A stretch of 32,000 bases of DNA from Patescibacteria group bacterium (GCA_041674405.1 JBAYVT010000006.1:1-32000), one strand, 5' to 3'. Positions 10,001 through 31,752 are shown, counted from the stretch's first letter. A program made the numbers and translations. Notes: generated by a model from the sequence alone, not told the origin.

Positions 10001-13000
10001 ACAGGGTCCACCCACATGGGTGTCTCAGGGTTCCGGTGGCGTCTATACGGTTCCTGCAATTAGTATTTCTTCTTATTCCCCGGTAGTTTTTGTTTCCGGT
10101 ACCGGCCCATCTTATGATATTAATTATGCTCCAACGGTGAAGGTTTGGAGCGCGGCTGCAGATGGAAACTGGGAAACGGATGCTAATTGGACGCCAAGCG
10201 GCGCTCCGGCTGCAGGCGACATAGTATTATTTGACGGGACATCAACCAAGAATTGTACTGTTACGACTTATACCGGTAGTGCTGGAGGGATGGGTATTGC
10301 TGACGGCATAGGAAGCGTTTCCTTGAATCCCGGTTATACTGGGACGATTACATTCCAAAAAAAGCCTTCGCAAAATGCTGACCCGTACAAAATTAATATT
10401 GCGGGAGATTTTGCCATTAATGCAGGAACCGTACTATCGCAAGGAGATACCTCTGTTGCTCACGGTGGGGTGACTGATGGGCGTGGTAATGAATACGGTT
10501 CTTTGAACCTGATTATTGGTTCGTCTGGAACCTTAAGCGCAGACAGTCTCGGGTTTCCAGCGTTCTCAGGGCCTGGGTATGGTGGTACGGGTACTTATGG
10601 AGGCCAAGGTTACTATAGTTCAGCAAACACATATGGTGATTTTTCAAATCCAGTAAGTTTGGGAAGTGGGAGTGCTAATGGTATAAGTGGCGGCGTATCT
10701 GGAGGCGGAGCAATGCTTATAAGCGTTACAGATACCGCAGACATATCGGGCACAATGTCAGCAAATGGCCAAACTTCAGGCGCTTACGCTGGAGCAGGCG
10801 GATCTGGAGGCTCTGTCAACGTGTCTGCCAAGACAATATCAAATAGCAGCGGAGGTGGTGTTATCTCCACAGAAGGTGGAGATGCCACATACACCTCTGC
10901 CGGTGGCAGTCCTGGCGGCGGCGGACGAATTAGCCTTCAAGCAACAACAATCAGCTATAACGGAACTCTAACAGCCGCAGGTGGAGTTTGGAACGCCAGC
11001 CGTTATGCTTCTGCCGGTACTATATTTAAAAAGGCCGGAGGCCAGAGCTACGGAGATCTTATTATTGACAATGGCACCAATGCTCCAGACTGGCGCATCT
11101 TCGGTGCTGCTCATTTAAAGGGCATAAACGATACGGGATCATATCAATTCGACAATCTGATAATCCAAAATTATGGAAAACTCGCTATAGATACCGGTCA
11201 AACTTTTGATCTTACAGGCGGCGTAACAGGTGGGGACAAAAATGCCGGTGTTATAAACGCAGGTACAATCACAACTCCTTCGACTTGGACACTGAATTAT
11301 TTTTTTGCTGACAAAAATGGTACGATTACAAACCTAGCAAACAAAGATATCATTGTCTCCTCAACCGGCCGCCTAACTCATTACGCAAACGCCAATCTTG
11401 AAACTTATAAATTAAATTGGCAAATAAATAACTTTACCGTTCAATCAGGCGGGGAAGTAATTACCTCAGGTGTCGGTTATGCGGCTGGACAAGGAACTGG
11501 TTATACAAGTGGTGCAGGTTCGAGTTATGGGGGGGATGGATACGCCGCAAGCACCACCAAAGCCTACGGAGATTATTCGAACCCAATCAATCTCGGAAGC
11601 GGCGGGTCGTATGCCGGTGGCGGCGGGGCAATTATCTTGAATGTTACAAATACACTAGACATTTCGGGGACAGGTATTATTTTGGCAGATGGCCTGAGTC
11701 ATGGGTCAATGAATAATAGCGCCGGCTCTGGCGGTTCAGTTAATCTGACCGCATCTTCTATCACCAACTCCGGTGGTGGGGGCTCAATCACAGCTAATGG
11801 TGGAAATTGTACTTTTTCCGGCGGCGGTTTCCAGCCGGGCGGCGGCGGCGGACGAATAAAACTCGAGGCGACTACGATTAGCTATAACGGAACAATTACT
11901 GCGGTCGGAGGATATAACGGCAACATGTATGCCTCTGGGGGCACAATTTACAAAAAGGCCGGTGGCCAGAGTTACGGTGATCTGATTATCAATAATGGAA
12001 CAAATACGCCTTTAGTGAGAAACCAGTTAAGTGCCCATCTTAAAACTTCGACCGATAATGGCACTTATCAATTTGATTCGATAACATTTTCCGGTTATGG
12101 CAGGTTGGTTGTCGACGCAAACCAAACCCTAAAACTCGACTCTGGCACGATAAGCGGTAACAAAACATCGGGAATTGTAAATGCTGGTACTATTAATGTG
12201 CCGGATAGTTGGAGCTTGAACCATTATTATTCTGACAAAGGTGGCACGATTACGAATTCGTCAAGTAAAAGTTTGACAATTACCTCAACAGGCCTTATGA
12301 CCCACTATCCGAATACGACTGATGAAACATATAAATTGAACTTAAATCTTTCAGGCCTGACCGTCCAATCAACTGGCGAGATCAATGTTGGTGAGATGGG
12401 CAATCAAACCGGGTATGGAAGTGGTTATGCAGCTGGAGTCGGTGCATCTCACGGCGGTGTCGGCGGAAGCTCAACTGCAGCTAAAACTTATGGTGATTAT
12501 ACCAATCCGATCAATATTGGAAGCGGTGGTAGCGGTAATGGCGGTGGCGGTAATGGCGGTGGCGCAGCAATTATCAATGTAACCAATTCGCTTGATATTA
12601 GCGGAACAATTTCGGCTTCTGGCGGTACATACCCGGGAGCCTGTTATGACTATGGATCAAGCGGTGGAAGTATTAATCTAACGGCCGGACAAATTACGGG
12701 CAGCGGCTATCTGTATGCACTTGGCGGAACCGTCAATTTTGGCTGTGCTGCACGTGACGGCGGCGGCGGCGGACGAATTAAAGCAGAAGCGACATCGATA
12801 GCGGGGACTTTGCATTATTCCGCGGCAGGCGCGCCAGGGGCTGGCACCCGCGGTGGATCTGCTGGTACGATTTACAAAAAAATAACCGGGGAATCAACCG
12901 GCGATCTTATTATCGATAATTCAACTACAAGCGCTACTGCATATACTCCCCTAACGATGCCTGTTTCTCTGAAAGTTTTAACGCTGCAAAGCAATGGCAG

Positions 13001-16000
13001 GCTTGAGGCAAATCCGAATGCTGACTCGGGCCAAAATGCCTTTTCAATCTCAGGGGATTTGACCATTGCTTCTGGAACTACAATGAGTGTGAAAGGAGAT
13101 GCTGACGGGACCCCTGCTGCAGGTTCTTGGCCGGCACTAACGGTCGGAGGTAGCGCGAGCATTGCTGGCACGCTGACAGCAACTGGCAATGGTTTCATTC
13201 ACGATACCGGTCCCGAAAGTGGTAAAGGGTTAGTTGCTGGTGGAAATGGTTCCGGTGGCGGTTATGGCGGCGCGGGGGGAAATTCGGCCGGCGGCGCCGT
13301 TGGGGGCCAAACTTACGGAGATCAGAGGAACAACAATTATCTTGGCTCCGGCGGTGGAAATACGAATGGCGGATCCGGCGGCGGAATGGTCAAGCTTTCT
13401 GTGGCTGGTAACTTGGCGCTTTCGACGACAGGTATTATTTCTTCGGATGGCAATGCTGGTGGCGCAAATGGCGGTGGTGGTTCCGGCGGATCAGTCCAGA
13501 TTGTTACCGGCGGTACTTTGTCCGGATCCGGAAGTGCTAAGATCACCACAAATGGGGGAGCTGGCGGTAGTGCTGGTGGCGGCGGTGGCGGCGGACGCGT
13601 TACCATTTATACGGCAAGTGATTCCTATACAGGTGCGCTGACGGCAAATGGAGGCACCAAGGGCACAGGAGCCCAGGATGGTTCTGCTGGTACCATACTG
13701 AATCAACATTCACCGACGGCACCAACAATTACTTCGCCAACCGATGCGGCAACCGGTCAAGTGCAAAGGATAGCTTTTCACTTTAATTCGACAGATATCG
13801 ATACTGACTGGATTCAATACAAATTACAATTAGCTACAGATTCCGGTATTACGCAAAACGTCTCAACTTTCGACGAAACGGTTTCACAATCTCCGTCTGA
13901 TGGCGGCCGATCTGCAGCTTTTTCAAATCAGAATATGACAACCGGAAAGGCGGCTGGGACCGATGGCTATGAATCGGGACGCGATGCAATTTTGACGCTA
14001 ACTTCGGATTTAACTCAAGGTGCGACTTACTATTATCGCGTGTATGCCTATGACCCGGAGGGTGTTGATTCGTTTGATGGTACGCAGCACTGGTCTATCG
14101 CTTCGAGCGTACAATCATTCACGGTTGCGGCTATCGACCGCATCGCTTTTTCAACTGCACAGCAGGAAATCGTGGTGACTTTCTGTTCGGCAGAGATGAC
14201 GATAAACTTGAGAAATTCAGCGAATACCAACATGAATTTGACTGCTGATGACGGCTCAAAGACAATTCATTTGGCATCAACCTCATCAGGTGGAAAATTT
14301 TATTCCGACGGCAATTGCCAATCGGAGCTTTCCGGCGCAAATGTCACAATTGCCCCGGGAAATTCAGCCTCAACCTTCTATTACAAAGACACGGTTCCGT
14401 CCGCGGTAGGAGGATATTGGAATATCACTGCGGCCGAGTCTCCATCAGCCGGCTGGACGGATGGATCGCAAAATATTCGGATCAAAGCAGGTGATTTTGG
14501 TTCTTTCGAGATTACTGGCGCACCAGCCACCATTGTTGCTGGCCAAGCCTTCTCGTCACCGGCAAACGATATTACCGTGACGGTGAAAGATGTATTTGGC
14601 AATGTAAAGAACGACTGGATCGGGGAAATTTGGTTCTATTCTTCCGATTCCCAGGCAACCTTTCCTTACAATGATTCGAGCAAATATACTTTCACATCGG
14701 GAGAGGGATTAGATAACGGCACCCACACCTTCGCGGGGACAGGATTTACTTACAAAACGAAGGGCAACCAATCTCTTGTAGTTCACAACTCGGAAGGCAG
14801 CGAACATGATGCCGTGACAAATGTGGCAGTCACGCCGGCTGCAACGGATCATTTTGGCCTTGCCAGTTATCCGAAGACCACGCAAGGATATTTTGCCATG
14901 GCCTCATTTGCCTGGAATACGCCGGGTTACTCGAATGCTCCGTATACGCCAGCAGTGACTGTTTATGACCAATTCAACAACGTCAAAGACAATTTCACCG
15001 GCAGTGTCTGGTTTGAATTATACAAATCGTCCGACACACCGGGAAATCCAGGTGACTCAACTGCCAGCTATTCTTTTGACAATGATTATACCAATCCTTA
15101 TACCTTTACTTCCGGCACAGGGAATGACAACGGCGCGCACGCATTTGCCGGTAGTGGGTTTATAGTGAATTCTGCCGGATCAGATTTGCGATTCAGGGTT
15201 AAAACCACAGACAATGGCAATAAATACTCTGATTTCACAATTTCGGTAAAACCGCAGGCGATCGATCACTTTGGCATCACCGCCTCCCCGACGCTTTCCA
15301 GAGGTGGCACAGACTGGGAGAAAGCAGTGGACTCGACCTTTACTGAAGATGTGACGGTCACTGCTTATGATGCGTTTGGCAATGTAAAAACCGATTATGG
15401 ATATGATGAAAATACCAAGGCGGGAATGATTTATTTTTATTCATCCGACACATATGCAGTGTTGCCATATTACAAAACCGTTTCAACCGATTCCACGCAT
15501 TGTTACAATTTTCCGGCCGATAATACCGGTACTTACACATTTACCCCAGAGAATACGCCGACAAATTACTTCATGTTTCGTACTGGAGGATACCAAACAA
15601 TTTCAGCATCAGAATGTATCGATCCAACCTCCGATTATGCAACCAATGTGAATACCAATCGTTATGATCCAAGGCTTGAGGGGACAAACCCATTAAAACT
15701 TGCTGCTTCGATTGGTTCTCTTCCTGCCGCGAATGCTACGCCTAACAAAGTATTTGTGTCACAGCATGTGCCAGGGTCAAATCATACAGCAACAGCCCAC
15801 ACAAATGATGCCAACGATCTTATTTCGGCAGCACCTGGCCACCAACAGGCAACTATCTCCTGGTACAATCCATTCGACGTGCCGTCTGATTCCAATGTTC
15901 ATCCTCAGGTTTATGTTTATCGTTGTACTCTTACCGATTGTAATGATCCGGAAAATTTCCAAAAAATTATAACCAATCCTTCCGAAGTTGCCGCAACTCC

Positions 16001-18289: not shown

Positions 18290-19045
18290 ATGTCGAAAAC
18301 AAAGGTAATTGAAGTGGAAAATATCACGAAATCATATGGTGTTGCTGATAATGTTTTTTCTGTTTTAAACGGGATTAGCTGTAGCATAGACTCGGGCGAA
18401 TTCGTGATATTTTTTGGTCCCTCTGGTTGTGGCAAATCGACGCTTCTCAACGTGATTTGCGGGCTTGAGACGGTTGACTCGGGAAAAGTTAGTATTCGCG
18501 GAGAAGATATTTCAAAATTTTCGCAAAAGGAAATCGCTTTTTACCGACGAACAAAGATTGGAATTATTTTCCAGCAGTTCAACCTTTTAAAAAATCTTTC
18601 AAACAAAGGTAATGTGGCGCTTCCGCTGGTGGCGAACGGAGAACCCCTAAAGCGCGCAGAACATCGTGCCGAGCAACTTCTTACAATGTTCGGGCTACAG
18701 AAACACATAAACAAACAACCAACAGAGCTTTCTGGCGGACAGCAACAGAGAGTGGCGATGGCGAGGGCACTTGCACCGAATCCCTGGATATTGGTTGCTG
18801 ATGAGCCGACAGGAAATCTGGATTCAAAATCGGCCGATGAGGTCATCGAAATTTTTAATATACTAAACCGGAAGTCAAAGAGAACGGTAATTATGGTTAC
18901 GCACAATCCGGATTATCTAAAATATGCTGATCGTGTCCTTCATCTTAAAGATGGTAAAATTGTTAAAGAAGAAAAAAATAAAAATACAGCAGCGGTTAAA
19001 AATATTGAAGGGTTTGATCTTAAAGAGCATGCGTTTTCCAACTAA
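18290..19045 (+). CDS. ABC transporter ATP-binding protein (MacB/LolD-like), 251 aa
   Basis: Walker A GPSGCGKST, Q-loop IGIIFQQFNL, signature LSGGQQQRVAMARAL, Walker B ILVADEPTGNLD and H-loop MVTHNP are all present. The ATG lies 2 nt after the giant gene stop (gaggTAAaaATG), suggesting co-translation in one operon. Confidence 0.92.
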   Translation: MSKTKVIEVENITKSYGVADNVFSVLNGISCSIDSGEFVIFFGPSGCGKSTLLNVICGLETVDSGKVSIRGEDISKFSQKEIAFYRRTKIGIIFQQFNLLKNLSNKGNVALPLVANGEPLKRAEHRAEQLLTMFGLQKHINKQPTELSGGQQQRVAMARALAPNPWILVADEPTGNLDSKSADEVIEIFNILNRKSKRTVIMVTHNPDYLKYADRVLHLKDGKIVKEEKNKNTAAVKNIEGFDLKEHAFSN

Positions 19046-19054
19046 GGGTTTGAT

Positions 19055-20236
19055 ATGAAATTTTTTCAAATTATCAGAACAACTTGGCTAAATATTCTGG
19101 GGAAAAGAATGAGGTCTTTGCTTACTGTTATCGGCATCGCCGTTGGTATCGGGACAATTGTTTTCTTGGTTTCTTTGGGATATGGCCTTCAAGAATTTTC
19201 GGTGAAAAGAATCAGCTCGATTCAATCGCTTACTACCCTTGATGTGACACAGGGGAAAACGGCTAATTTTAAGCTTGACGAACCGACAATTGATAAGATA
19301 TCAAAACTAAGCAATGTATCAGAAATTAGCCCGATTATCTCATTGGGCAGCAAGGTTGCGCTTGCTGACAAAAAAACCGATGCGGTAGCTACGGCTGTGC
19401 AAGGTGACTATTTTGTGTATGAAGACCTTAAGCTCACAAAAGGCTCTACTTTCATGGATGATGATAAAAAAGCAGTGTTGTCAACGGCCCTTTTGCAGGC
19501 GCTTGGTACGGACGAAAATTCAATAATCGGCAAAACAATCGCGTTTAATATTTCCTATAAACAAAAAGAGCAGTCTCAAAGCAAAGATTTAAGCCTTATT
19601 GTGTCTGGCGTTGTCTCCGATAACACTTCTCCCTTTGCCTACATCCCATTGTCTCAAGTTCAGGATCTGCTGGGAGAGCGCGCCATCTACTCGTCCTTAA
19701 AGGTAAAAACCGCTTCTGAAGATACTATGGGCGGCGTTCGCAAGGAAATCGAAGACATGGGGCTTTCTGTTACTTCGGTTGCTGACACAATTGCCCAAGT
19801 AAACAGCGTTTTTGGCGGGATTAGGATCGCCCTTGGCTTATTGGGTGGGATTGCCCTGGTCGTTGCGGCAATCGGAATGTTCAATACAATGACGATCGCC
19901 CTTTTGGAGAGAACTCGTGACATTGGGATAATGAAATCGGTCGGCGTTGATAACCGCGATATTTACTGGATGTTTTTGGCTGAAGCAATTATCATCTCTG
20001 GTGCAGGAGGAATTGCCGGCGCAGCATTTGGGCAGCTTCTGGCTGTGCTGATCAATGTTCTTGTTGGTAGCTTGGCTAGGATGGTTGGTGCGGAGCCAAT
20101 CGTGTTGTTTTCAACCCCGTTTACATTTGTTGCCATCATTGTCGGTTTTTCGCTGGTAGTTGGGATCTCGACCGGATTTTATCCTTCAAGAAGGGCAGCT
20201 AAAATCAATCCATTGGATGCGCTGCGTTATGAATAG
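19055..20236 (+). CDS. FtsX/MacB-family ABC permease, 393 aa
   Basis: The N-terminal TM helix (LLTVIGIAVGIGTIVFLVSLGYG) is followed by a ~220-aa extracytoplasmic domain and the FtsX block MTIALLERTRDIGIMKSVGV...FYPSRRAAKINPLDALRYE. It parallels the permease half of the fused gene at 1..1544. The start lies 9 nt after the ATPase stop. Confidence 0.9.
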   Translation: MKFFQIIRTTWLNILGKRMRSLLTVIGIAVGIGTIVFLVSLGYGLQEFSVKRISSIQSLTTLDVTQGKTANFKLDEPTIDKISKLSNVSEISPIISLGSKVALADKKTDAVATAVQGDYFVYEDLKLTKGSTFMDDDKKAVLSTALLQALGTDENSIIGKTIAFNISYKQKEQSQSKDLSLIVSGVVSDNTSPFAYIPLSQVQDLLGERAIYSSLKVKTASEDTMGGVRKEIEDMGLSVTSVADTIAQVNSVFGGIRIALGLLGGIALVVAAIGMFNTMTIALLERTRDIGIMKSVGVDNRDIYWMFLAEAIIISGAGGIAGAAFGQLLAVLINVLVGSLARMVGAEPIVLFSTPFTFVAIIVGFSLVVGISTGFYPSRRAAKINPLDALRYE

Positions 20237-21636: not shown

Positions 21637-22956
21637 ATGTGCCTTACGATCCCGGGAAAAATTATAGATATAAAAAATGGCATGGCCTCAATTGCCGAAA
21701 ACCAAAATCAAATCAAAATTGATCTCGGTTTTGTTTCTGGCGCGAAAGTAGGTGATTGGATTCTCTATGCTACTGAGCGTGCGGTAAAAATTATTGATGA
21801 AAACGAGGCAAGAGAAATTATCAATTTGCTGGAAACAAAATATAAACCGGTTGATAATCAAAAGTTGCCGGATAGGTTGAAGGAAATGATTGTTGATTTG
21901 AGGGCAAATCAACAAGGGCAAAGGGGAAAGAGAAAAGTGAAAAGGATTACAAAGCCTGATATAGAATATCTCTTGTCACTTGAAAATCCGGAGGAGCTGA
22001 CGACGCTATATTCGGAAGCTAATACTTTGCGCAAATCGGAGCTCAAGGATTTCGTCTGCATTCATGGTATTATCGAATTTTCAAATTACTGCAAAAATAA
22101 TTGTATGTATTGTGGAATTCAAAAAGATAACGAGAGTATTAAACGTTATCGAATGAGTGCTGATGAAATTATTGAAGCGGCCGGAGATGCGATAGAGAAT
22201 GAGGGATATAAACTGGTCGTCCTGCAAAGCGGAGAGGATCTCTCGTATTCGGATGATGATATAATCGGAATTATTAGCGCGCTAAAAAATAATCATAAGG
22301 TGTTTATCTTTTTATCGGTAGGCGAGAGAAGCGAAAATTTTTACAGGAAGGCTTTTGCGGCAGGGGCGCATGGTTCACTCTTTCGATTTGAGACAAGCAA
22401 TCCAAAACTTTATGCGAAATTACACCCAGGACACTCCCTGGAACAACGTTTGTCTTCTTTGCGGACGCAACAGAAGATCGGATATTACGTTGCTTCTGGC
22501 AGCCTTGTGGGGCTTCCAGGACAGACAATATCCGATATTGCGAGCGATATTTTGATGGTGAAGAAACTGGGAGTGCCGATGATCTCATCAGGGCCATTCA
22601 TTCCAACAGGAGGGACGCCGCTTTACAAAATCAAAAGTCAATCCGCCAACCGGCGGACAAAAGTCAAAACTGTGGAATTATTTCTAAAATACATCGCTGT
22701 GTCGCGGCTTCTCATGCCCGAGATTAAGATTCCGGTCACCACTGCACTCGAAACTTTGGATCCGGAAAATGGGCGCCACAGGGGACTCTTGGCTGGTGCA
22801 AATGCTTTGATGTTCAATTTAACGCCCAAAAAGTATTGCAAAAATTACAAGATATACGACAATAAGTATGTCGAGAGAGAAAAGGTCTGGCAAAAATATG
22901 GCCTTTTCAAAGGAGAAGAGTCTTATGAAATGCTCGAAAAAAGATTACGTTTTTAG
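21637..22956 (+). CDS. Fusion protein: N-terminal HypC/HupF-like domain + HydE-like (BioB/HydE-class) radical-SAM enzyme, 439 aa
   Basis: The N-terminus MCLTIPGKIIDI...VGDWILYATERAVKIIDENEAREIINLLE follows the HypC pattern: an MC(L/I)x(I/V)PG start with the essential Cys2, and a VG(D/Q)W(V/I)L...I.E.EA tail. A basic linker follows. The radical-SAM core is IIEFSNYCKNNCMYCGIQKDN (CxxxCxxC) ...KRYRMS...VVLQSGED...FRFETSNPKLYAKLHP...SGSLVGLPGQT...GPFIP, which closely resembles HydE as I recall it. GGAG lies upstream of the ATG. Confidence 0.8.
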   Translation: MCLTIPGKIIDIKNGMASIAENQNQIKIDLGFVSGAKVGDWILYATERAVKIIDENEAREIINLLETKYKPVDNQKLPDRLKEMIVDLRANQQGQRGKRKVKRITKPDIEYLLSLENPEELTTLYSEANTLRKSELKDFVCIHGIIEFSNYCKNNCMYCGIQKDNESIKRYRMSADEIIEAAGDAIENEGYKLVVLQSGEDLSYSDDDIIGIISALKNNHKVFIFLSVGERSENFYRKAFAAGAHGSLFRFETSNPKLYAKLHPGHSLEQRLSSLRTQQKIGYYVASGSLVGLPGQTISDIASDILMVKKLGVPMISSGPFIPTGGTPLYKIKSQSANRRTKVKTVELFLKYIAVSRLLMPEIKIPVTTALETLDPENGRHRGLLAGANALMFNLTPKKYCKNYKIYDNKYVEREKVWQKYGLFKGEESYEMLEKRLRF

Positions 22957-22990
22957 TCGAAAGTCCATAAAGTCTGTAAAGTCCATAAAG
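22954..22990 (+). repeat. Copy B of the TAGTC + AAAGTC-unit repeat (left flank of the four-helix-bundle gene)
   Basis: TAGTC GAAAGTC CATAAAGTC TGTAAAGTC CATAAAG. The first TAG is the stop codon of the HypC-HydE gene, and the array ends 9 nt before the 4HB gene ATG. Confidence 0.7.
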
Positions 22991-22999
22991 CGGGAGAAA

Positions 23000-23344
23000 A
23001 TGAAAATCAATAAATTTGAAGATATATTGGCTTGGCAGAAGGCGAAAGAGCTGACTCTCTTGGTCTATACGATATTCAAGGCAAACAAGGATTTTGGTTT
23101 TCGCGATCAAATTCAAAGGGCGGTGATATCGATTATGAACAATATTGCTGAGGGTTTTGAACGTCGCGGAGATAAAGAATTTAAACATTTTTTGTATATT
23201 GCCAAAGGGTCCTGCGCTGAGGTTCGTTCAATGCTTTATATTGCTAAAGAACAAGGTTATGTCAGAAGCACAGATTTTGATAGAATCTACTTATTAACTG
23301 TCGAAATTTCAAAAATGTTATCAGGATTCATAAAGACTTTATAG
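23000..23344 (+). CDS. Four-helix-bundle protein (23S rRNA intervening-sequence protein family), 114 aa
   Basis: The translation from the internal ATG at 23000 (GGGAG SD 3 nt upstream) is MKINKFEDILAWQKAKELTLLVYTIF...FRDQIQRAVISIMNNIAEGFERRGDKEFKHFLYIAKGSCAEVRSMLYIA... This matches the family signature as I know it (W..A..L...(V/I)Y, Q(L/I).RA..SI..NIAEG, F..(F/Y)L.IA.GS..E). The 44 codons upstream in the listed ORF are just the repeat array read through. Confidence 0.85.
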   Translation: MKINKFEDILAWQKAKELTLLVYTIFKANKDFGFRDQIQRAVISIMNNIAEGFERRGDKEFKHFLYIAKGSCAEVRSMLYIAKEQGYVRSTDFDRIYLLTVEISKMLSGFIKTL

Positions 23345-23963: not shown

Positions 23964-24038
23964 GGCGCCATCGTATAGCGGTTAGTACGCCGCCCTCTCA
24001 CGGCGGTAACAGGGGTTCGATTCCCCTTGGCGCTACCA
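23964..24038 (+). tRNA. tRNA-Glu (anticodon CTC), CCA encoded
   Basis: Cloverleaf folded by hand over 75 nt:
- acceptor GGCGCCA/TGGCGCT (G1-U72 wobble)
- D stem GTAT/GTAC
- anticodon stem CCGCC/GGCGG
- anticodon loop CTCTCAC, giving anticodon CTC
- T arm AGGGG-TTCGATT-CCCCT
- discriminator A, then CCA. Confidence 0.85.
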
Positions 24039-24071
24039 AAAAATGAGCAACCACTGGGTTGGTCATTTTTT
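24038..24071. terminator. Bidirectional rho-independent terminator between tRNA-Glu and the convergent minus-strand operon
   Basis: AAAAAA-ATGAGCAACC-actg-GGTTGGTCAT-TTTTTT forms a 10-bp stem with one mismatch. An A-run and a T-run flank it, so it can work on both strands. Confidence 0.7.
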
Positions 24072-24145: not shown

Positions 24146-25075
24146 CTAGAGTGTCGTAATGGGACGAGACTGCAAAATGTAGATTTTTCCCTTTTCAAGA
24201 GCCCATTCAATATCACAAGGAAATTTATAATGATCCTCAATATCTTTAGTCATCTTTGCAAGCTCAATTATTTTTTTGCCTTCAATTTTTTGAGTCTTTT
24301 TTTGTGCACGGGGGACATCTTTACTTGATACGATGGCGCCATCAAAAATAAGCATCTTTTCTTGTTGGTTAATTTCAGCACTTAAAAAGGCGAAGTCATT
24401 TTTGTCAATCACATATTTGTCTGGGGTAATGTCTCCACCGACAACATATTCGCCAAGTCCAAAACCCGCTTCAATGAAAATTTCGTTTTTGTTTTTAGTA
24501 ACAGGGTGGACCGTAAAGGCAATTCCAGCAATTTCACTGGGGACCATCTTTTGAATCACCACGGCAACCTTGATATCTCCTTCAACCATTTTTTCGAGCC
24601 TGTACGTTAACGCTCGTGGCGAATAAAGAGAAGACCAACAATCCTTGATCCTTTGTAAAAGGTCGTTTTTGTTAACATAAAGAAAGGTTTCCAGTTCACC
24701 TGCCCAAGACATTTTTGGATTGTCTTCAGCAGTGGCAGAGCTTCTAACGGCAACGTATAGCAATTTTTCCTCATCAAACAATCGGTAAATTGCTTCTTCT
24801 GTTTCCATATTTATTTCACAATTTGCAATTAACTGCTGAATTTCCTTTGCAGAATTGGCGATGTTTCCTTCTTCTAGTTTATTCAATATCTCGTTGATTT
24901 TACCTGAGATATTGTTATCATTGAGAAATTTCTCAAAGGTCTCAGAGCAAATGACAAACCCTTCAGGAACAGGAAAGCCAGCATTAGCTAGTTCTCCCAA
25001 AGCCAAACCTTTTCCACCGACAAGTAATATATCATTTGGCTTAATTTCTTCAAATTTTATTACGAGATTACTCAT
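24146..25075 (-). CDS. Stand-alone PEP-utilising-enzyme N-terminal ATP-grasp (PPDK_N / PpsA nucleotide-binding) domain protein, 309 aa
   Basis: Motifs are LLVGGKGLALGELANAGFPVPEGFVI, VAVRSSATAEDNPKMSWAGELETFLYV, AVVIQKMV and FPCDIEWALEKGKIYILQSRPITT. These mirror the PpsA/PPDK N-terminal domain. There is no swivel-His or PEP/pyruvate TIM-barrel domain in this ORF. The start overlaps the upstream gene by 8 nt. Confidence 0.85.
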   Translation of the reverse strand: MSNLVIKFEEIKPNDILLVGGKGLALGELANAGFPVPEGFVICSETFEKFLNDNNISGKINEILNKLEEGNIANSAKEIQQLIANCEINMETEEAIYRLFDEEKLLYVAVRSSATAEDNPKMSWAGELETFLYVNKNDLLQRIKDCWSSLYSPRALTYRLEKMVEGDIKVAVVIQKMVPSEIAGIAFTVHPVTKNKNEIFIEAGFGLGEYVVGGDITPDKYVIDKNDFAFLSAEINQQEKMLIFDGAIVSSKDVPRAQKKTQKIEGKKIIELAKMTKDIEDHYKFPCDIEWALEKGKIYILQSRPITTL

Positions 25076-25943
25076 TTTTGCCTTCGACTAGTTGGTGTAA
25101 AACATCGTTATCGACAGAATACCTTTTATTCCTTAAAATGACTGAGATTGTTGCATTGCCATCTGAATCTGTGTCAACTTCGCTTTCCCAGCCCTCGAGT
25201 ATCGCTAGAGAGCCGCCTAGTTGGTCAATATTATTAACTCTTTGCCCTTCTTCATCAATTAGGATACCAGACGTTAGAAATGGCTCCATTATGCCTCTAT
25301 GCGATATATGGAATAAATCTATTTCCGAACCAGAATATAATTTTGAAGCCATTCGATTATGCCTTCGGTTAAAAAGTTGTGCAAAATTATATGCTGCCAT
25401 TTCAGGAGACTGAAGTTGTGATAAATCCGTTTGACCCGATAGCCATTCTGCCAAAATAGGTTCCTCTGCTTTCTCTGCTATTTTTTCTTGCTCATCAGGA
25501 GGTAAACTCTTAAAATTGTCTGGGTCTAGGCCCATTTCTTGCATCAGTTTGGCTCGACTTTCGGTAAACTTTTTATCATATAATTCAAGAAATTCTTTCG
25601 GAAAATTAAGGGTTAGTTGTTCCCTTATGGCTATATTTCTTATTGGAACATCTGGGTTTGATTCCTGGTAACCATTAAGAATGCTTTCTGCTGTCTCTCG
25701 TGTTCTTGGTGATTCACTGACGTAAGCTTTTGCACCGTGTTGGGAAGCTTCAATTCCTCCGCCAAGCTCTTTTGCTTTGGAGGCTCCTTGTTCTGAGATG
25801 CTACTTTTACTTAATGCTCCAGCAACAATAACTTCACCGCTCTGTTTTTGAGCGTGTCTATTCCAATAATTTCTTATTTTAACATCTGAACCGTATTTGC
25901 GTAGAGTCTCATTTTCTGCATTAAAGTTTGGTATTTCACTCAT
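25068..25943 (-). CDS. Histidine-phosphatase (PGAM-like) superfamily protein, 291 aa
   Basis: Superfamily-like motifs are WNRHAQKQSGE (RHG-type catalytic Arg-His), VSESPRTRETAESIL (the SSP..R...TA block) and LFHISHRGIMEPFL (second catalytic His, vvsHg type). A long acidic insertion lies between them. AGGAAAG SD precedes the start, and there is an ATGA overlap with the upstream gene. The call rests on motifs only. Confidence 0.55.
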   Translation of the reverse strand: MSEIPNFNAENETLRKYGSDVKIRNYWNRHAQKQSGEVIVAGALSKSSISEQGASKAKELGGGIEASQHGAKAYVSESPRTRETAESILNGYQESNPDVPIRNIAIREQLTLNFPKEFLELYDKKFTESRAKLMQEMGLDPDNFKSLPPDEQEKIAEKAEEPILAEWLSGQTDLSQLQSPEMAAYNFAQLFNRRHNRMASKLYSGSEIDLFHISHRGIMEPFLTSGILIDEEGQRVNNIDQLGGSLAILEGWESEVDTDSDGNATISVILRNKRYSVDNDVLHQLVEGKNE

Positions 25944-27442
25944 AACTTTCCTTTTTGAATTATTCTTACCTCACCTTTATCAGCATCAACTTCAATAATA
26001 TCGCCATCTTTAATTACTTCGGTGGCAATCTTGGTTCCGATAATACAAGGAATATTTAATTCTCTTGAAACGATTGCAGCGTGCGAGTTTATTCCACCTT
26101 CGTTGGTCACTATGGCACTAGCTTTTTTAACTGCGAGGATTAACTCTGGGCCAGTGGTTTCAGTAACAAGAATTTGTCCGTTTTCCATATTGGCGATTTC
26201 TTCCTGTATTACCTGAACTTTAGTCGTTAATCTGATAAGTTTTGCCTTACCTTTTGCAAAACCAAAATTGGCCGTATTGCCTCTGAAAGCATGCAAATCA
26301 CTCTCAATAACTGGTTTGACTAACCTGATTATTCCTTTTGCTTTTTCACCAGTAGCTAATTGATATGTACCACCCTCAGGAATATAAGCAAAGCTCTCTT
26401 GTCTATCTATGATTTCTTTCAGGGGAAAATTTCCTGTTTGAAAAAGTTCCTCAATTTCTTCCACAGCCATAAATTCTAACTGGTTCATTGCAATATAAAA
26501 GCGTTTGCTGATTTCTCTGAAAAGAAGAGAGATAATGCTTTCATCGCCAAAAAATGATTTATTTAAAAGTATTCGGAGCTCAAATTTCTTCTCTTGCATC
26601 TGCCTTACCACGTTCCCAAGCCAAACTATTTCAGGGGGCAGTTCCTTTTCCAGCTTCTTTTGTTCTTCTGTTAATTTAGCAGATTGGTTCACAATATCTT
26701 TAATGAAAGATTCTGATTTATCTGTATTCTGCAAATCTTCGGAGAAAAGCTCGAGCACTTCTTCAACCGTCTGGTATTTTTTGCCATCCTTGTAATTCAG
26801 AAAGCCCCACTTTTCAGCATGCGCTTTTACGAGAGAAAAACTCTTACTTTTTCTTAGTTCATCGCAGTTTTTATTAAGTATAAGCTGTTTGGTAAACCTA
26901 TCATCGTTAAGTTTTAATGCGATTTTTGACCTATCGATTTTTTCTTCAGTTAACAGATTATTTTCAGGCGGAGATGATAATAAAGCAGTCAATATGTTTG
27001 GCAAGTCTTTAGTATCAAATTTCTTTTCCAAAGCTTCGTTAATTTTTTCTTCGATTGAATCGAAAAAGAAATACTCGGTTAAGTAATAGTAATCAAGATA
27101 TTCAACAATAAGAGAAATTTGCTGAGAGAAAACCTTTAAGAATTCACCCTCAGATAAAGAGCCCAAATCTAAGTTGTCAAAATCTCGAGTTAATGAAATT
27201 ATCCTTTTGGTCAAGCCATCAATCTTTGCAAAAAGTTCATCTGTTTTTTCTTTGTCTGAATAGAGCTCTAGCCCTTTTTGATTTAGCTTATGTTCGTCTT
27301 CTGGTTTAGCATAATTTTCCCATACGCCATCTTGATAAATGAAGACAAAGTTGGCTTTGCCATAATCACTTTTTGCAACAAGGTCAGTGAAAGTAATGCC
27401 TGGACCAGGTGCAAATTTAAAAATAGAATTGTATTTGTTCAT
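25940..27442 (-). CDS. Protein with an unknown ~400-aa helical N-terminal domain and a C-terminal PEP-utilising-enzyme mobile (swivel phospho-histidine) domain, 500 aa
   Basis: The C-terminus GQILVTETTGPELILAVKKASAIVTNEGGINSHAAIVSRELNIPCIIG...GDIIEVDADKGEV is the canonical swivel-domain signature (GG..SHAAI(V/L)(A/S)RE..IP). I place the start at the ATG at 27442 (MNKYNSIFKF...). The listed 27553 start is a TTG that would overlap the REC gene by 65 nt. Confidence 0.8.
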   Translation of the reverse strand: MNKYNSIFKFAPGPGITFTDLVAKSDYGKANFVFIYQDGVWENYAKPEDEHKLNQKGLELYSDKEKTDELFAKIDGLTKRIISLTRDFDNLDLGSLSEGEFLKVFSQQISLIVEYLDYYYLTEYFFFDSIEEKINEALEKKFDTKDLPNILTALLSSPPENNLLTEEKIDRSKIALKLNDDRFTKQLILNKNCDELRKSKSFSLVKAHAEKWGFLNYKDGKKYQTVEEVLELFSEDLQNTDKSESFIKDIVNQSAKLTEEQKKLEKELPPEIVWLGNVVRQMQEKKFELRILLNKSFFGDESIISLLFREISKRFYIAMNQLEFMAVEEIEELFQTGNFPLKEIIDRQESFAYIPEGGTYQLATGEKAKGIIRLVKPVIESDLHAFRGNTANFGFAKGKAKLIRLTTKVQVIQEEIANMENGQILVTETTGPELILAVKKASAIVTNEGGINSHAAIVSRELNIPCIIGTKIATEVIKDGDIIEVDADKGEVRIIQKGKL

Positions 27443-27488
27443 GATTGATCGTTTGTTCTTGCTCAAATTTTCTTTTGTGAAATTAATA

Positions 27489-27851
27489 TCAGTTCTCAAG
27501 CACTTCGCTAACCTTAGAGGCGAGTTTTTCCGGTTCGAATTGGGCTTTGACAAAATACTCTTTAGCGCCGAGAGATCGGGCTTTGTCGGCTGAAGCCTCC
27601 TCTGGAAGATTTGTGAGCATCATTACCGGAATTGAAGATGTTTCTTTGTTGTCTTTCAGTTTTTCTAGCACGTCGAGACCGTTTTCTTGGGGCATAATTA
27701 TATCAAGAAGAATTAAATCCGGCATTTCTTTCTCCGCCGCCTCTAGTGCTTCGATGCCATTTCCCGCGGTTATTACTTCGTGTCCAGTCAGCGCTTCCCC
27801 ATACATTCGAAGGATTGGTTCTTCGTCATCAACTATTAAGATCTTTGCCAT
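27489..27851 (-). CDS. Single-domain response regulator (REC/CheY-like), 120 aa
   Basis: ILIVDDEEPI..., phospho-acceptor context DLILLDIIMPQENG, then PVMMLTN and AKEYFVK (conserved T and K). No output domain is present. GGAG SD lies 5 nt upstream, and the start lies inside the 3' end of the kinase gene. Confidence 0.9.
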   Translation of the reverse strand: MAKILIVDDEEPILRMYGEALTGHEVITAGNGIEALEAAEKEMPDLILLDIIMPQENGLDVLEKLKDNKETSSIPVMMLTNLPEEASADKARSLGAKEYFVKAQFEPEKLASKVSEVLEN

Positions 27852-29160
27852 TAGTCTCCTTTGTCCTTTTAGGAATATTGATTAAAATTTTGGTGCCTTT
27901 TTTGGGCTTACTTTCGATATTTAATGTGCCGCCGTGTTTTTCAATGATGGTCTTGGCAATATAAACGCCAAGGCCCGTACCTTTGTTATCGATATTTATT
28001 GCTTCTTGTGTCCGGTAAAATTTTTCCCCGATTTTAAGAAGCGCATCTTGCGGAATGCCAATTCCATTATCAGAAACGATTATATCAACTGAAATTTTCT
28101 TGTCGATAACTTCGACTGAAACTTTGCCACCCGGGGCGTATTTGATCGCATTATCCATGAAGTTAATAATTGCCTGGCCCAATTTTTCGCCATCAGCAAA
28201 AATAATTAAATTTTTATCAATTTCAGAAAGGGTAAGGGTAACTTTCGATTCTTCCGCCTTAGATTCTAAATCTTTGATGATTTTATGCATCAAGTCTGAC
28301 ATATTAACATCTTCAAGGTTTAATTTGATCTTCTCTTGCTCGATTCTTGAAATGGACAAAAGGTTATTGGTCAGTAAAACCATTTTTTCGGTCGAACTAT
28401 GAATTTCTTTTATAAATTCCGCTTGTTTTGTGCTGAGTTTCCCTTCTTTGCCAGAAATTAATAGAGAGGAGTAACCGCGGATTATTGAAAGAGGAGTATT
28501 TAGCTGGTGAGAAGTTACAGCAATAAATTCTTTATCTCTTTCAGTGAGCGCTTTTTCATATGAAACATCACGGATAACGGCAAGCGATTTTACTTTTCCG
28601 TCATTTTCGCGAATCAACGCGAAGCTTGCCTCAATGTCCGCATTTTCGCCATCTTTTGTCACGATTCTATTTTTCACGTAAGGATCGGTTCTTTTAACTT
28701 GTGGGCTTGTGAACATCAAATCTGGCAAAAGTGAGCTATTTTTTTCAGCATGAAATTTCAGAAGATTTTGGGCGAGATGCCCAAGCGCTTCTTCTTTTTT
28801 GTAGCCGGTGATTTTCTCCATGCCCGGAGAAAAATCCTCTATTCGTTGTTCATCGTCAAGCACCAATATTCCATCAGCAGAATTGTTAAATACGAGGTCG
28901 AGTGTTTTTTGGCGATTATTAATTTCTCGTTGTTTTTCGATAAGTTCCTCAGTTTTTCTCTGAGATTCTTCATAAAGAGAACGATTGTTGAGGTAGAAGA
29001 ACACGGCAGCAAGTGTACCACCGATCAAAACGTATTGAAGCAAAGAAGATGCCCTGAATGCATCAAAGCGCATAAGTATATAAATCGTCGACAGAATAAA
29101 TAAAACCCAAAAAATGGCTTCTATCGAACGTAAGAAATTATGCTTTCGTTTTTTTGGCAT
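27829..29160 (-). CDS. Membrane sensor histidine kinase with a PAS-like domain, 443 aa
   Basis: There are two N-terminal TM helices, then a coiled linker and a PAS-like segment (ADGILVLDDEQRIEDFSPGMEKITGYKKEEALG). The H-box is FIAVTSHQLNTPLSII. The HATPase_c N/G boxes are FMDNAIKYAP, VSDNGIGIP and GTGLGVYIAKTIIEKHGG. GGAGGGAA SD precedes the ATG. Confidence 0.9.
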   Translation of the reverse strand: MPKKRKHNFLRSIEAIFWVLFILSTIYILMRFDAFRASSLLQYVLIGGTLAAVFFYLNNRSLYEESQRKTEELIEKQREINNRQKTLDLVFNNSADGILVLDDEQRIEDFSPGMEKITGYKKEEALGHLAQNLLKFHAEKNSSLLPDLMFTSPQVKRTDPYVKNRIVTKDGENADIEASFALIRENDGKVKSLAVIRDVSYEKALTERDKEFIAVTSHQLNTPLSIIRGYSSLLISGKEGKLSTKQAEFIKEIHSSTEKMVLLTNNLLSISRIEQEKIKLNLEDVNMSDLMHKIIKDLESKAEESKVTLTLSEIDKNLIIFADGEKLGQAIINFMDNAIKYAPGGKVSVEVIDKKISVDIIVSDNGIGIPQDALLKIGEKFYRTQEAINIDNKGTGLGVYIAKTIIEKHGGTLNIESKPKKGTKILINIPKRTKETNGKDLNS

Positions 29161-29174
29161 TTCCCTCCATAAGT

Positions 29175-29203
29175 ATTATAATAAAATTAGTCCATAAAGT
29201 CGA
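29175..29203 (-). promoter_or_regulatory. Candidate promoter of the kinase operon (TCGACT - 17 nt - TATAAT on the minus strand)
   Basis: The minus strand reads TCGACT-ttatggactaattttat-TATAAT-acttatGGAGGgaaATG. The -35-like hexamer is supplied by a GACTTT unit of repeat copy D. Confidence 0.4.
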
Positions 29204-29247: not shown

Positions 29248-30297
29248 ATGAAGAGGGTTAAGCAAGGAGCCAACGTGAAGTTGAGTGGTTTACTTCGAGT
29301 AAAATCGAGAGGATCTGCAATTATCATTGCGTTCTTTCTGATGGCGGCGATAGGCGGTATTGCTTTTGCTATAGGCAGGATTTTTATTCTTGATACTTCT
29401 ATTTCATCTTTGTATGAAAATGGAACAGTTGCTTACTATGCTGCTGAATCTGGAATTGAGGAAGGTATGTTGCGTTACCGTTACAACATGAACTATCAAG
29501 TGCCTGATGGGACGTCGAATGTTCGAAGATACAATCTAAGCAATGCAAGATTGAATAAATTAAGTACCGATCCTGTAGCGACATTAATCCCAAACAGCGA
29601 AAAGAAATTTTATGATTTGAATGCGATTTACAAGGCAAAATTCTATGGTGATACTGACAGAGAGGACGGTTCTTTTAATCTGCAGTTTTTCGAAAGTGAC
29701 CAGTATGGTAAAAATGGCGATGCAAAGGTTTTCCGAATCCCACGCGATGAAAGCATAAAAATTGATATCAGTAATTTTGTCGGTTCCGGAAGCAATGATA
29801 TGGACATGTATCTAAAAATGGATAATTTTGACGGACAGGATAATGGAAATTCTGATCCAGCGGACAAAACGCTGATAGAAGTGAAGGTGACCGGCACTTT
29901 TGGATCTGAACAAACAAAAACTTTTCTTGAGCGTAAAAAAGCGCTTGTTACTCCGACTACTGCTATTCCGATAGCGGATACCACCTCGAGGGTTATGCTT
30001 GCGCCAATGTTGTCACCAGTATGTAGGTATTGCTACTCTAAGGCTAACATTATTTCATCGGTAGCAGAATCTTCACTTGCAGTTAGTAACAAGGCAGAAT
30101 TATCAATCAAGCCGGTTGGCTCCGACATTTATATCGCGCTAATACCAAGAAATAGTAGAAAAATGGCTTCACCCTGGACGACTGTAAAATCAACCGGATA
30201 TTTTGGTAACGCGGCCAGAACTCTCACGGCAAATATTGACCGCCAAAGTGGTACCGTTTATGATTTATTTGACTTCGTGGTCTACAAACACAATTAG
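29248..30297 (+). CDS. PilX-N-like putative type IV pilus minor/assembly protein, about 340-349 aa
   Basis: The N-terminus SRGSAIIIAFFLMAAIGGIAFAIG followed by AYYAAESGIEEGMLRY matches the PilX N-terminal pattern (RGsaL...hydrophobic helix...A.yaAEaG(l/i)e). The remainder has no motif I recognise. A better start may be the GTG at 29275, with AAGGAG 5 nt upstream. Confidence 0.55.
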   Translation: MKRVKQGANVKLSGLLRVKSRGSAIIIAFFLMAAIGGIAFAIGRIFILDTSISSLYENGTVAYYAAESGIEEGMLRYRYNMNYQVPDGTSNVRRYNLSNARLNKLSTDPVATLIPNSEKKFYDLNAIYKAKFYGDTDREDGSFNLQFFESDQYGKNGDAKVFRIPRDESIKIDISNFVGSGSNDMDMYLKMDNFDGQDNGNSDPADKTLIEVKVTGTFGSEQTKTFLERKKALVTPTTAIPIADTTSRVMLAPMLSPVCRYCYSKANIISSVAESSLAVSNKAELSIKPVGSDIYIALIPRNSRKMASPWTTVKSTGYFGNAARTLTANIDRQSGTVYDLFDFVVYKHN

Positions 30298-30348
30298 TGT
30301 ATAATATTAACCAATAACTAATAACTTAAATTTGTTTGTGGAGGAGAT

Positions 30349-30756
30349 ATGCCGGAGAGTAAAACAATAATGGTGGTTGATGATGATTTAACTCTTCGTG
30401 AAATGTACGAAGAGAGATTAAAGGCAGAAGGATTTGTCGTTACTGGCGCTGCCGATGGCGAGGAGGCTTACAAAAAAGCGCAAGAGGAACATCCAAGCTT
30501 AATTATTCTTGACATTATGATGCCAAAATTAAATGGCATAGATACTTTGAAAAAGCTTCGAGCAGACGACAAAACTCAAGATATTCCTGTAATTATTTTA
30601 ACTGCGCTGGTACAAGAGATAGACAAAATCAAGGAAATGATGCGCCCAAATGATTCATACCTTGTAAAATCCGAAGAAATGCCAAAAGATGTCGTCTCTA
30701 AAGTCTATATGGCTTTAAATGAAGGCGAAGCAAAAAAAGAAGAGGAAAAAGAATAG
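30349..30756 (+). CDS. Single-domain response regulator (REC/CheY-like) with a K/E-rich tail, 135 aa
   Basis: IMVVDDDLTLREMY, SLIILDIMMPKLNG, PVIILTAL and YLVKS are present. No output domain is present. GGAGGAG SD precedes the ATG. Confidence 0.9.
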   Translation: MPESKTIMVVDDDLTLREMYEERLKAEGFVVTGAADGEEAYKKAQEEHPSLIILDIMMPKLNGIDTLKKLRADDKTQDIPVIILTALVQEIDKIKEMMRPNDSYLVKSEEMPKDVVSKVYMALNEGEAKKEEEKE

Positions 30757-30801
30757 CACTACCACGATTTAGTCCACAGATTAACACAGATAATTCATAT
30801 G

Positions 30802-30829
30802 AAAAATCAGCCCTCGAGGGCTGATTTTT
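30802..30829. terminator. Bidirectional rho-independent terminator
   Basis: AAAAATCAGCCC-TCGA-GGGCTGATTTTT is a perfect 28-nt palindrome with A- and T-runs on both sides. It lies between the convergent REC gene and the pil genes. Confidence 0.8.
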
Positions 30830-30872
30830 CTTTCTACAGACTAAGGACTACCAAATACGAACTAATCACTAA

Positions 30873-31130
30873 TCACTGAACAGGGACAAATGGATTATCG
30901 CGCCCATATCCGGCTTCGGTTGCGGTAACCTTCTGTCCATAATCTTTAATTTCCGTGAGTGATTTGAATTGATCGGTTTTAAGTTCAACATCTTCATTAT
31001 TGCTTGTTGTCGCGGTATCACTATTTTTCATTAGGCTGGAATAGACAAAATAGCCCAATACAATACCGGCTAGCACTACGATGCAAACTGCGTATACTGA
31101 TATTTTCTTTCCATCAAAACTATTTGCCAT
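30873..31130 (-). CDS. Small single-TM protein with a C-terminal GRDNPF motif (possible PilP-like pilus assembly component), 85 aa
   Basis: The TM helix is ISVYAVCIVVLAGIVLGYFVY and the C-terminus is GYGRDNPFVPVQ. An R(D/N)PF motif is typical of PilP-type proteins. The gene overlaps the pilO-like gene by 11 nt. The functional call is weak. Confidence 0.4.
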   Translation of the reverse strand: MANSFDGKKISVYAVCIVVLAGIVLGYFVYSSLMKNSDTATTSNNEDVELKTDQFKSLTEIKDYGQKVTATEAGYGRDNPFVPVQ

Positions 31131-31752
31131 AATAAATGTTTCCTTTCAAATCAAATTGAAGCGTGCCGGCATCAACTGAATAACCGGAAATATTTACTGA
31201 GCTTAATGATGTGAACCGGGGAAATGATGCAATTTTCTGTAAAAAAGTTTTAAATCCTGGATAGGTTGTTTTAAAGGACGTAGAAAAGGGGATTCCGGTG
31301 CCAGAGTTCTTGGCTGTTGAGGTTGCTGCGGATGGTGTGGAACTAGTGCTTTCGGAGCTAGTTTTGTTTGCACTTGTGGTTTTTTCGTCCTCTTGGACCG
31401 GAGTAGCTTTTTTGGCTACTGGCTCGGTGATAGTGAGGGTGGGAAAAACAATTGATAAATCGGTACCGAGAGCCTCCATTTGCACAACGAAATCGCTTGA
31501 ATTTTGAGTATCTGGCAATAGATTCTTAACTGTTTTTTCTACGCTATCGAGATCAGTTTTGTTTTTACTGTATTTACTTAGGTTTGAAATTGCCTCTTCA
31601 TCTTTGGCAAGCTTGGCATTATTTTGTTCCAAGGCAATACGATTGCTTTTGAGCTCGTTAATTTTGGGTATGATACCAAAAATAATCACAGCTGCAATTA
31701 ACAACACATATATTGAAAGAACATAATAGGATTTTGGAATTGAAAATTTCAT
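31120..31752 (-). CDS. pilO: PilO-like type IV pilus assembly protein, 210 aa
   Basis: An N-terminal TM helix (YVLSIYVLLIAAVIIFGIIP) is followed by a coiled-coil (KINELKSNRIALEQNNAKLAKDEEAISNL) and a C-terminal ferredoxin-like part. It has an S/T-rich linker. An ATGA start/stop overlap links it to the upstream pilN-like ORF. Confidence 0.65.
   Translation of the reverse strand: MKFSIPKSYYVLSIYVLLIAAVIIFGIIPKINELKSNRIALEQNNAKLAKDEEAISNLSKYSKNKTDLDSVEKTVKNLLPDTQNSSDFVVQMEALGTDLSIVFPTLTITEPVAKKATPVQEDEKTTSANKTSSESTSSTPSAATSTAKNSGTGIPFSTSFKTTYPGFKTFLQKIASFPRFTSLSSVNISGYSVDAGTLQFDLKGNIYYGK

Follow-up and report, generated by a model that had tools for sequence, protein, structure and literature searches.

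The window, that is, the whole stretch of DNA that was analysed, comprises 32,000 nucleotides (nt) from a Patescibacteria group bacterium (GCA_041674405.1, JBAYVT010000006.1:1-32000). An original prediction, made from the sequence alone, had described within it a cluster of tightly coupled minus-strand genes for proteins that handle phosphohistidine or phosphoaspartate. Calling of open reading frames (ORFs) recovered five ORFs, all on the minus strand, with coordinates and motifs matching that description, and the positions, overlaps and quoted motifs were all reproduced. In the direction of transcription the genes encode a membrane sensor kinase of 443 amino acids with the Pfam domains PAS, HisKA and HATPase (27829-29160), a single-domain response regulator of 120 amino acids (REC, PF00072; 27489-27851), the 500-amino-acid His subunit of a dikinase, hereafter the swivel protein (PF00391 and a fold like that of rifampin phosphotransferase, RPH; 25940-27442), a histidine-phosphatase-superfamily enzyme of 291 amino acids identified by its fold and catalytic residues, hereafter HP291 (25068-25943), and an ATP-grasp subunit of 309 amino acids that consists of the PPDK_N domain only (PF01326; 24146-25075). 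The kinase and REC genes overlap by 23 nt and the REC gene is separated from the swivel gene by 46 nt, while the swivel and HP291 genes overlap by 4 nt (ATGA) and the HP291 and ATP-grasp genes by 8 nt.

The swivel ORF has an alternative TTG start at 27553; because homologues of 500-501 amino acids align from M1, the ATG at 27442 was taken as its start. A sigma-70-like promoter match (TCGACT, 17-nt spacer, TATAAT) lies upstream of the kinase gene on the minus strand (29203-29175), and a terminator-like hairpin followed by a T-run lies on the same strand 45 nt past the stop codon of the ATP-grasp gene (24101-24083). A second hairpin scores on both strands (24048-24061). All three are consensus matches only, and the operon boundaries of the cassette are putative ones. 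The candidate promoter at one end and bidirectional terminator at the other had both been predicted, and this description now needs an addition, as a plus-strand gene for tRNA-Glu (CTC; 23964-24038), placed between a DJ-1/PfpI gene and the end of the cluster, directly adjoins the second hairpin. The phosphoenolpyruvate (PEP)/pyruvate TIM-barrel domain (PF02896) had no match in the five genes or in any other window ORF scanned, in agreement with its predicted absence.

The swivel and ATP-grasp proteins form a probable two-component dikinase

Residues 1 to ~380 of the swivel protein (26303-27442) make up a helical substrate-binding domain of the RPH/HpeH type, and residues ~381-500 a C-terminal swivel phospho-His domain (PF00391, E 1e-24) carrying the motif TNEGGINSH (T-x-x-G-G-x-x-x-H) with the catalytic His454 (codon 26081-26083); T/SxxGGxxxH is the swivel motif described for HpeH, PpsA and RPH (PMC12167813). 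A Foldseek search with the AlphaFold2 (AF2) model of the protein (predicted local distance difference test score, pLDDT, 92.3) gave Listeria RPH-Lm as the best match (5fbt/5fbu/5hv1, E 3e-13 to 3e-12), which was also the sole match over the full length, aligning across 480-580 columns at 15-17% identity. A profile built from 40 family members matched RPH with E 2.6e-31 across RPH residues 509-866. On the strength of the modelled fold and these profile matches we identify the N-terminal domain as the counterpart of the central, rifampin-binding domain of RPH, and the original wording, an unrecognisable helical domain of ~400 amino acids, can be dropped. The same prediction had held that a clear match to the rifampin-binding domain would make this simply a split antibiotic kinase; the match does exist by fold and by profile, but at 15-17% identity and with the Rph model failed it holds at the level of the family only, and therefore does not make the 500-amino-acid protein a rifampin kinase. 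HpeH, a phenol-type kinase, is likewise ~20% identical to RPH (PMC12167813), and because it stands in the same relation to RPH, the fold tells of an RPH/HpeH-type dikinase and carries no information on the substrate.

The 309-amino-acid protein matches PF01326 with E 2.6e-88 over profile positions 3-311 of 328, carries the motifs VGGKG and AVRSSATAED, and resembles PEP synthase, RPH and a stand-alone ATP-grasp chain of 387 amino acids (9goj) with E values of 1e-50 to 1e-63. Named family models were reached by neither subunit at their cut-offs. The Rph model NF041857 has a cut-off of 999 bits, and the scores were 228 (ATP-grasp subunit) and 49.5; for NF000283, with a cut-off of 1700, they were 158 and 34. 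The best NCBIfam names for the dikinase subunits were those of PEP synthase, again with scores below cut-off: TIGR01418 gave 292 and 96 bits against 739.75, with alignments ending at about model position 460. The swivel protein thus fails the Rph, the PEP-synthase and also the phenol-kinase family models, the PRK08296-type models matching its swivel region only (residues ~420-535) at 60-81 bits against cut-offs of 578-730.

A separate PPDK_N subunit, a second subunit with an RPH-like domain and a C-terminal swivel, and the lack of a TIM barrel are the properties of PpsAB, HpeHI, CreHI, AcvAB and PasAB. In a 2025 study HpeI was described as the ATP-grasp component and HpeH as the subunit with RPH-like substrate domain and swivel, and HpeHI, CreHI and PpsAB were grouped into a subfamily, the two-component small-molecule dikinases (PMC12167813); other examples are PasAB and AcvAB (PMC7500099; bioRxiv 10.1101/2022.04.28.489975). 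The enzyme of the window is a two-component small-molecule dikinase of the PpsAB/HpeHI/CreHI kind, its catalysis being predicted by analogy. It follows that two statements of the original prediction do not hold: that no system of this composition had been described, since the split itself is already published, and that the parts are permuted, since the operon names ppsAB, hpeHI and acvAB likewise list the His subunit ahead of the ATP-grasp subunit, the gene order of the window. Such operons can also include the gene for a dedicated phosphatase (HpeD, AcvF). The window enzyme differs from these systems in several respects. The phenolic clade (PpsA, HpeH and CreH) has a mutual identity of ~45%, whereas the window protein shows no full-length similarity to it and resembles it in the swivel region only. 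The host belongs to the Patescibacteria, and no carboxylase or aromatic-pathway genes were found near the cassettes in the window or in the related loci examined. The phosphatase of the window has a histidine-phosphatase fold and not that of the HAD phosphatases, its gene stands between those of the two subunits, and its linkage to the swivel gene persists through many architectures. RPH itself (5FBS/5FBT/5HV1) consists of the same three modules, and fused relatives of 770-782 amino acids with the RPH domain set also stand beside HP291 genes; unlike RPH, the window enzyme is encoded by two genes, and we saw no evidence of rifamycin binding.

HP291 has an intact histidine-phosphatase core

PF00300 reached 21.4 bits on HP291, against a gathering cut-off of 21.7 and over the N-terminal third only, and gave weak matches in 7 of 17 close homologues; the assignment to the histidine phosphatases is based on fold and catalytic residues and not on Pfam. 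With the AF2 model of HP291 (pLDDT 86.7), Foldseek returned 211 PDB matches at E <= 1e-3, the best 50 of which all belonged to the histidine-phosphatase superfamily (MINPP, histidine acid phosphatases, PGAM and TIGAR; E down to 5e-9, probability 1.0). A helical insertion of ~85 amino acids (residues ~116-201) occupies the cap position of the MINPP, acid phosphatase and PGAM matches. The catalytic core consists of R29, H30 (codon 25854-25856), R80 and H215 (codon 25299-25301), which are invariant in the 17 close homologues. Over 131 near-full-length family members, R29 and H30 were kept in 104/104 aligned sequences, R80 in 113/113 and H215 in 128/131. The predicted PGAM-like identity is thereby borne out: with the modelled fold and all catalytic residues in place, HP291 is a catalytically intact histidine-phosphatase-fold enzyme of predicted activity. 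The identical sequence is filed at NCBI as 'MAG: hypothetical protein WC080_04455 [Patescibacteria group bacterium]', and a profile search of 1.84 billion protein representatives delimited the HP291 family to 240 cluster representatives at E <= 1e-3.

Three further ideas on HP291 and its partners were discarded. Longer forms of HP291 (509-691 amino acids) were considered as Rosetta-stone fusions; their extensions matched neither the swivel domain, the RPH-like domain, the X358 protein introduced below nor any Pfam family. A function as phosphatase of a regulatory phospho-Thr at position -2 from the catalytic His of the swivel showed no correlation with adjacency, Thr occupying this position in 13 of 22 HP291-adjacent and 15 of 18 non-adjacent swivel domains aligned by hidden Markov model, and the window protein having Asn. 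Finally, a role in anti-phage defence found no PADLOC match among the three core proteins.

HP291 is linked to the swivel domain across related loci

We collected 45 related loci (numbered with the prefix L), seeded with the swivel protein or HP291, and annotated them with alignment-derived profiles; they hold 25 distinct HP291 genes, for 20 of which the fetched sequence extends 400 bp or more to either side. In L001, which represents the closest different organism, the genes for swivel protein, HP291 and ATP-grasp subunit follow in the same order as in the window and overlap, with 66% and 68% identity for the swivel protein and HP291. A swivel-domain ORF stands directly beside HP291 on the same strand in 17 of the 20 distinct loci, and in one further locus X358 comes between the swivel ORF and HP291; the remaining two harbor the most divergent HP291 members (32-35% identity). 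As for background, 34 swivel ORFs were counted within 5 kb of HP291 and one in the 92 kb beyond 5 kb. The strongest genomic link is that of HP291 with the swivel domain, and in Patescibacteria we regard HP291 as an obligate genomic companion of such genes. The same gene order in L001 and variant layouts in more than 20 loci speak against a chance neighbourhood and confirm the co-conservation of the three core genes, and we conclude that the three genes at 24146-27442, rather than the whole five-gene cluster, make up the functional unit, a cassette that is kept across the Patescibacteria.

The swivel domain accompanies HP291 in three main layouts. The RPH-like domain is fused to the swivel and the ATP-grasp protein is separate in the window, L001 and L029/L031; ATP-grasp, RPH-like domain and swivel form a single chain of 770-782 amino acids beside HP291 in L033 and L034; and a free-standing swivel of ~110 amino acids is followed by X358, with or without a nearby ATP-grasp gene, in L010, L014, L016-L020, L023-L025 and L035. 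Variant layouts also occur in L013/L021 and L042. X358 is a conserved protein of ~360 amino acids that matched neither Pfam families nor PDB entries nor, at profile level, the RPH-like domain (L010:7226-8323; L014:1540-2640; L016:11131-12225 and 12526-13599; L017:2311-3387; L018:11165-12241; L019:11197-12294; L020:11163-12266). It always follows the free-standing swivel gene, which itself follows HP291, and the swivel-X358 pair is tandemly duplicated in L016 and likewise in L023 and L024. A diverged RPH-like domain was rejected as its identity (hhalign probability 0.4%); X358 may instead be an alternative substrate- or donor-binding partner of the free phosphocarrier swivel. In L010 (Moraniibacteriota, GCA_016699425.1) a single ORF of 1521 amino acids with a PPDK_N and two swivel (PF00391) domains lies downstream of the HP291, swivel and X358 set (8323-12888).

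The clusters of L013 and L007 contain several swivel paralogues together with a second, divergent phosphatase-like gene. Each of these genes encodes ~290 amino acids, that of L007 (3221-4105) lying between swivel and PPDK_N genes and carrying RHG, SxxRT and THD motifs, and that of L013 (4011-4886) lying between two swivel genes and likewise carrying histidine-phosphatase motifs; between them the motifs are RHG, SxxRT..TAE or R..ETAD, and THD or THGG. The HP291 profile matched the L013 protein weakly (E ~1e-10) and gave no significant match to the L007 protein, which we therefore did not count as an HP291 family member despite its motifs. The partnership of phosphatase fold and dikinase may thus not be confined to the HP291 family in its present delimitation.

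The sensor kinase and REC are neighbours specific to this lineage

Both remaining genes of the cluster are intact. The kinase has HisKA (PF00512), HATPase_c (PF02518) and PAS domains with the H-box His218, its closest NCBIfam resemblance being to PnpS, WalK and PhoR, under their cut-offs; REC (PF00072, E 1.8e-21) retains D8, D9, D50, T80 and K102. Neither a sensor kinase nor a REC gene was found in any of the 24 other distinct HP291 loci or in the swivel-seeded loci, and in L001 the gene upstream of the cassette encodes SmpB, not a kinase. Other samples of this organism (L043, L044) show the five genes in identical arrangement, and a promoter scan found no promoter-like site in the 46-nt gap between REC and swivel genes. 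In this genome the pair is flanked on one side by the cassette and on the other by a type IV pilus cluster, which occupies window positions 29248-31752 and continues in L043:1-5071. It begins with genes for a 349-amino-acid protein that has no Pfam match, a second REC-only protein (30349-30756; divergently transcribed), an 85-amino-acid ORF and PilO (31120-31752), and proceeds past the window end with PilN, PilM, PilC and PilB. The kinase and REC are lineage-specific neighbours, possibly co-transcribed with the cassette, and not members of the conserved unit; a connection with the neighbouring pilus genes is more probable. Because the pair is absent from related loci and borders the pilus cluster, the proposed control by the PAS kinase, with REC as a possible substrate, lacks comparative support.

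Other genes in the window

Farther from the cassette, window positions 7074-18287 encode a single ORF of 3737 amino acids with a LamG-like domain, FN3 repeats and domains of the purple-acid-phosphatase N-terminal type. After it come genes for an ABC ATPase and a MacB/FtsX permease (18290-20236), and ahead of it lie a second MacB/FtsX permease gene (96-1544) and an ORF of 1219 amino acids without a Pfam match (1655-5314). The ORF at 21637-22956 carries a HypC/HupF domain at the N-terminus of a radical-SAM enzyme of the HydE/BioB-like kind, an unusual fusion with a weak BATS-domain match (E 0.0096, under the Pfam cut-off). A gene of the 23S-rRNA-IVP/bAvd type, encoding a four-helix bundle, lies at 22868-23344 and has a counterpart at L001:1952-2290. 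The latter adjoins reverse-transcriptase fragments, which suggests a diversity-generating retroelement in L001; no reverse-transcriptase gene was seen in the window.

Discussion

The data make it very probable that the cassette encodes a two-component dikinase of the RPH/HpeHI type together with a conserved histidine-phosphatase-fold partner, the kinase and REC standing outside the conserved unit. Mechanism and two-component architecture have been established for HpeHI and PpsAB (PMC12167813, PMC7500099), and from such characterised homologues (PMC12167813) we infer how the cassette would work. The 309-amino-acid subunit would bind ATP. His454 of the swivel would attack the beta-phosphate and become pyrophosphorylated, then keep the beta-phosphate, yielding AMP, inorganic phosphate (Pi) and His~P. 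The swivel would carry its phosphate to the helical N-terminal domain, where a small molecule, probably not rifampin, pyruvate or phenol, would be phosphorylated. An ATP-driven His~P swivel, as originally predicted, is the natural reading of these parts. For HP291 we tentatively favor hydrolysis or relocation of a small-molecule phosphoester linked to dikinase catalysis, be it the product, a derivative or a precursor; this assignment, and with it the complete scheme, we rate at somewhat below an even chance. It is consistent with the best structural matches of HP291, which are small-molecule enzymes (MINPP, acid phosphatases and PGAM), with the insertion at the cap position, and with the situation in L013 and L007, where additional swivel paralogues go together with divergent phosphatase-like ones. 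Operons combining a dikinase with a phosphatase are known from aromatic pathways, where the HAD phosphatases HpeD and AcvF fulfil such a function (PMC9618137; bioRxiv 10.1101/2022.04.28.489975).

Several observations weigh against this scheme. The flanks fetched contain an ATP-grasp gene in just 7 of the 20 loci, and HP291 is 45-52% identical to the window protein whether it stands beside an RPH-like domain or the unrelated X358. As the swivel domain is the constant neighbour, a target at the protein level fits at least as well. None of the 25 cassettes has beside it a gene for an enzyme, such as a carboxylase, that would use the phosphorylated intermediate, so that a simple pair of kinase and then phosphatase looks futile. 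HP291 could accordingly be a phosphohistidine phosphatase similar to SixA, stripping the phosphate from the swivel His~P and thereby braking or resetting the dikinase; a reset had been named in the original prediction. SixA belongs to the same superfamily, shares the catalytic His chemistry and acts on phospho-His carriers supplied by a PEP-utilising enzyme (EI-Ntr to NPr), dephosphorylating NPr~P downstream of Enzyme I and the phospho-His intermediate of Ndk (PMC7948535, PMC6282199, PMC12934123). The swivel is the invariant neighbour of HP291 whether fused to the RPH-like domain, free at ~110 amino acids or part of a single-chain enzyme of 770 amino acids, HP291 divergence is independent of the type of substrate domain, and the 4- and 8-nt start/stop overlaps suggest coupled translation. 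However, SixA is compact, cap-less and ~160 amino acids long, whereas HP291 is nearly twice as long, with its large helical insertion of ~85 of 291 amino acids; SixA was not among the 50 structural matches listed, the best of which are small-molecule enzymes; and a brake made one to one with its enzyme would short-circuit the dikinase. In the literature we found no comparable coupling of SixA to a swivel gene, and overall we judge this function unlikely, though it is the alternative to which we give most weight. A related thought, which seems to us distinctly improbable, is a relay in which the swivel His~P phosphorylates His30 of HP291 and HP291 serves as a third station of phosphotransfer. 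HP291 would then act as an ATP-primed mutase or phosphotransferase on a substrate of its own or, in reverse, phosphate from a phospho-metabolite would pass via the swivel to AMP and make ATP. PEP synthase or PPDK run in reverse to make ATP in some anaerobes. Such a relay would account for the association of HP291 with the swivel whatever the substrate domain. If true, it would be a His-to-His phosphotransfer between two enzyme superfamilies, a coupling of which we found no description in the literature.

The remaining explanations fared worse. A phospho-relay of all five genes, in which the PAS kinase and REC control the dikinase or are phosphorylated by it, draws on the common strand, the tight spacing, the 46-nt gap in which no promoter-like site was found and the identical arrangement in L043 and L044; given the absence of the pair from the 24 other loci and the swivel-seeded ones, SmpB in its place in L001, and a position beside a divergent REC and the PilB/C/M/N/O cluster, we consider it very improbable. 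No better founded would be a split antibiotic-inactivating kinase, i.e. a rifamycin phosphotransferase or similar resistance enzyme: RPH-Lm is the best and only full-length structural match, the profile homology covers RPH 509-866 and the ATP-grasp subunit gains 228 bits on the Rph model, but 228 and 49.5 bits are far under 999, the identity is low, and HpeH relates to RPH in the same way. Up to seven tandem paralogues in Patescibacteria and DPANN and the coupling to HP291 also argue against it, neither being found reported for Rph in the literature; we hold this explanation to be highly unlikely. The least credible is an ordinary PEP synthase (pyruvate, water dikinase) or an aromatic catabolic kinase of the phenylphosphate-synthase type. 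PEP synthase and PPDK have homologous ATP-grasp and swivel domains, and their His~P swivelling is expected of the window enzyme as well; PEP synthase is the best NCBIfam name, JGI calls relatives 'pyruvate, water dikinase', and phenylphosphate synthase has been annotated in DPANN genomes (PMC8091004). Against this, the window enzyme has an RPH-type helical domain in place of the TIM barrel, which is missing from the cassette and the window ORFs scanned, and its TIGR01418 scores stay under the cut-off of 740; for the aromatic version, the PRK08296-type models reach the swivel region only and carboxylase or aromatic genes are missing from the surroundings.

Swivel-His dikinases are known in central metabolism, in antibiotic resistance and, recently, in aromatic catabolism. 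The split form is already known, and the version in the window belongs to a distant, uncharacterised branch of it in Patescibacteria and DPANN; the new element is the tight linkage of a dikinase swivel gene to a dedicated family of histidine-phosphatase fold. Coupling of such dikinases to a partner of this fold was not found in the literature searched. The swivel protein as query gave 1389 matches, revealing a large uncharacterised radiation in these two groups. In L008 (2171-11569; also in L009) at least seven consecutive paralogues of 442-522 amino acids combine the RPH-like domain with a swivel, and the fetched 11.5 kb contain no ATP-grasp or HP291 gene. This array looks substrate-diversified and would have to share one ATP-grasp subunit. 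Two other relatives of the swivel protein (P0020, P0023) are fused to a UDP-N-acetylglucosamine 2-epimerase domain (PF02350), which hints at sugars or sugar nucleotides as substrates of some family members; a fusion of epimerase and kinase is known in GNE.

These results also correct annotation, as the genes of the cassette should not be called PEP synthase, phenylphosphate synthase (see PMC8091004 for DPANN) or PhoE. Because the host genomes are minimal, a conserved cassette of kinase and phosphatase that spends ATP, with no pathway evident in its surroundings, probably serves something important, and candidate roles are the trapping, activation or salvage of a metabolite, or a new logic of phosphotransfer.

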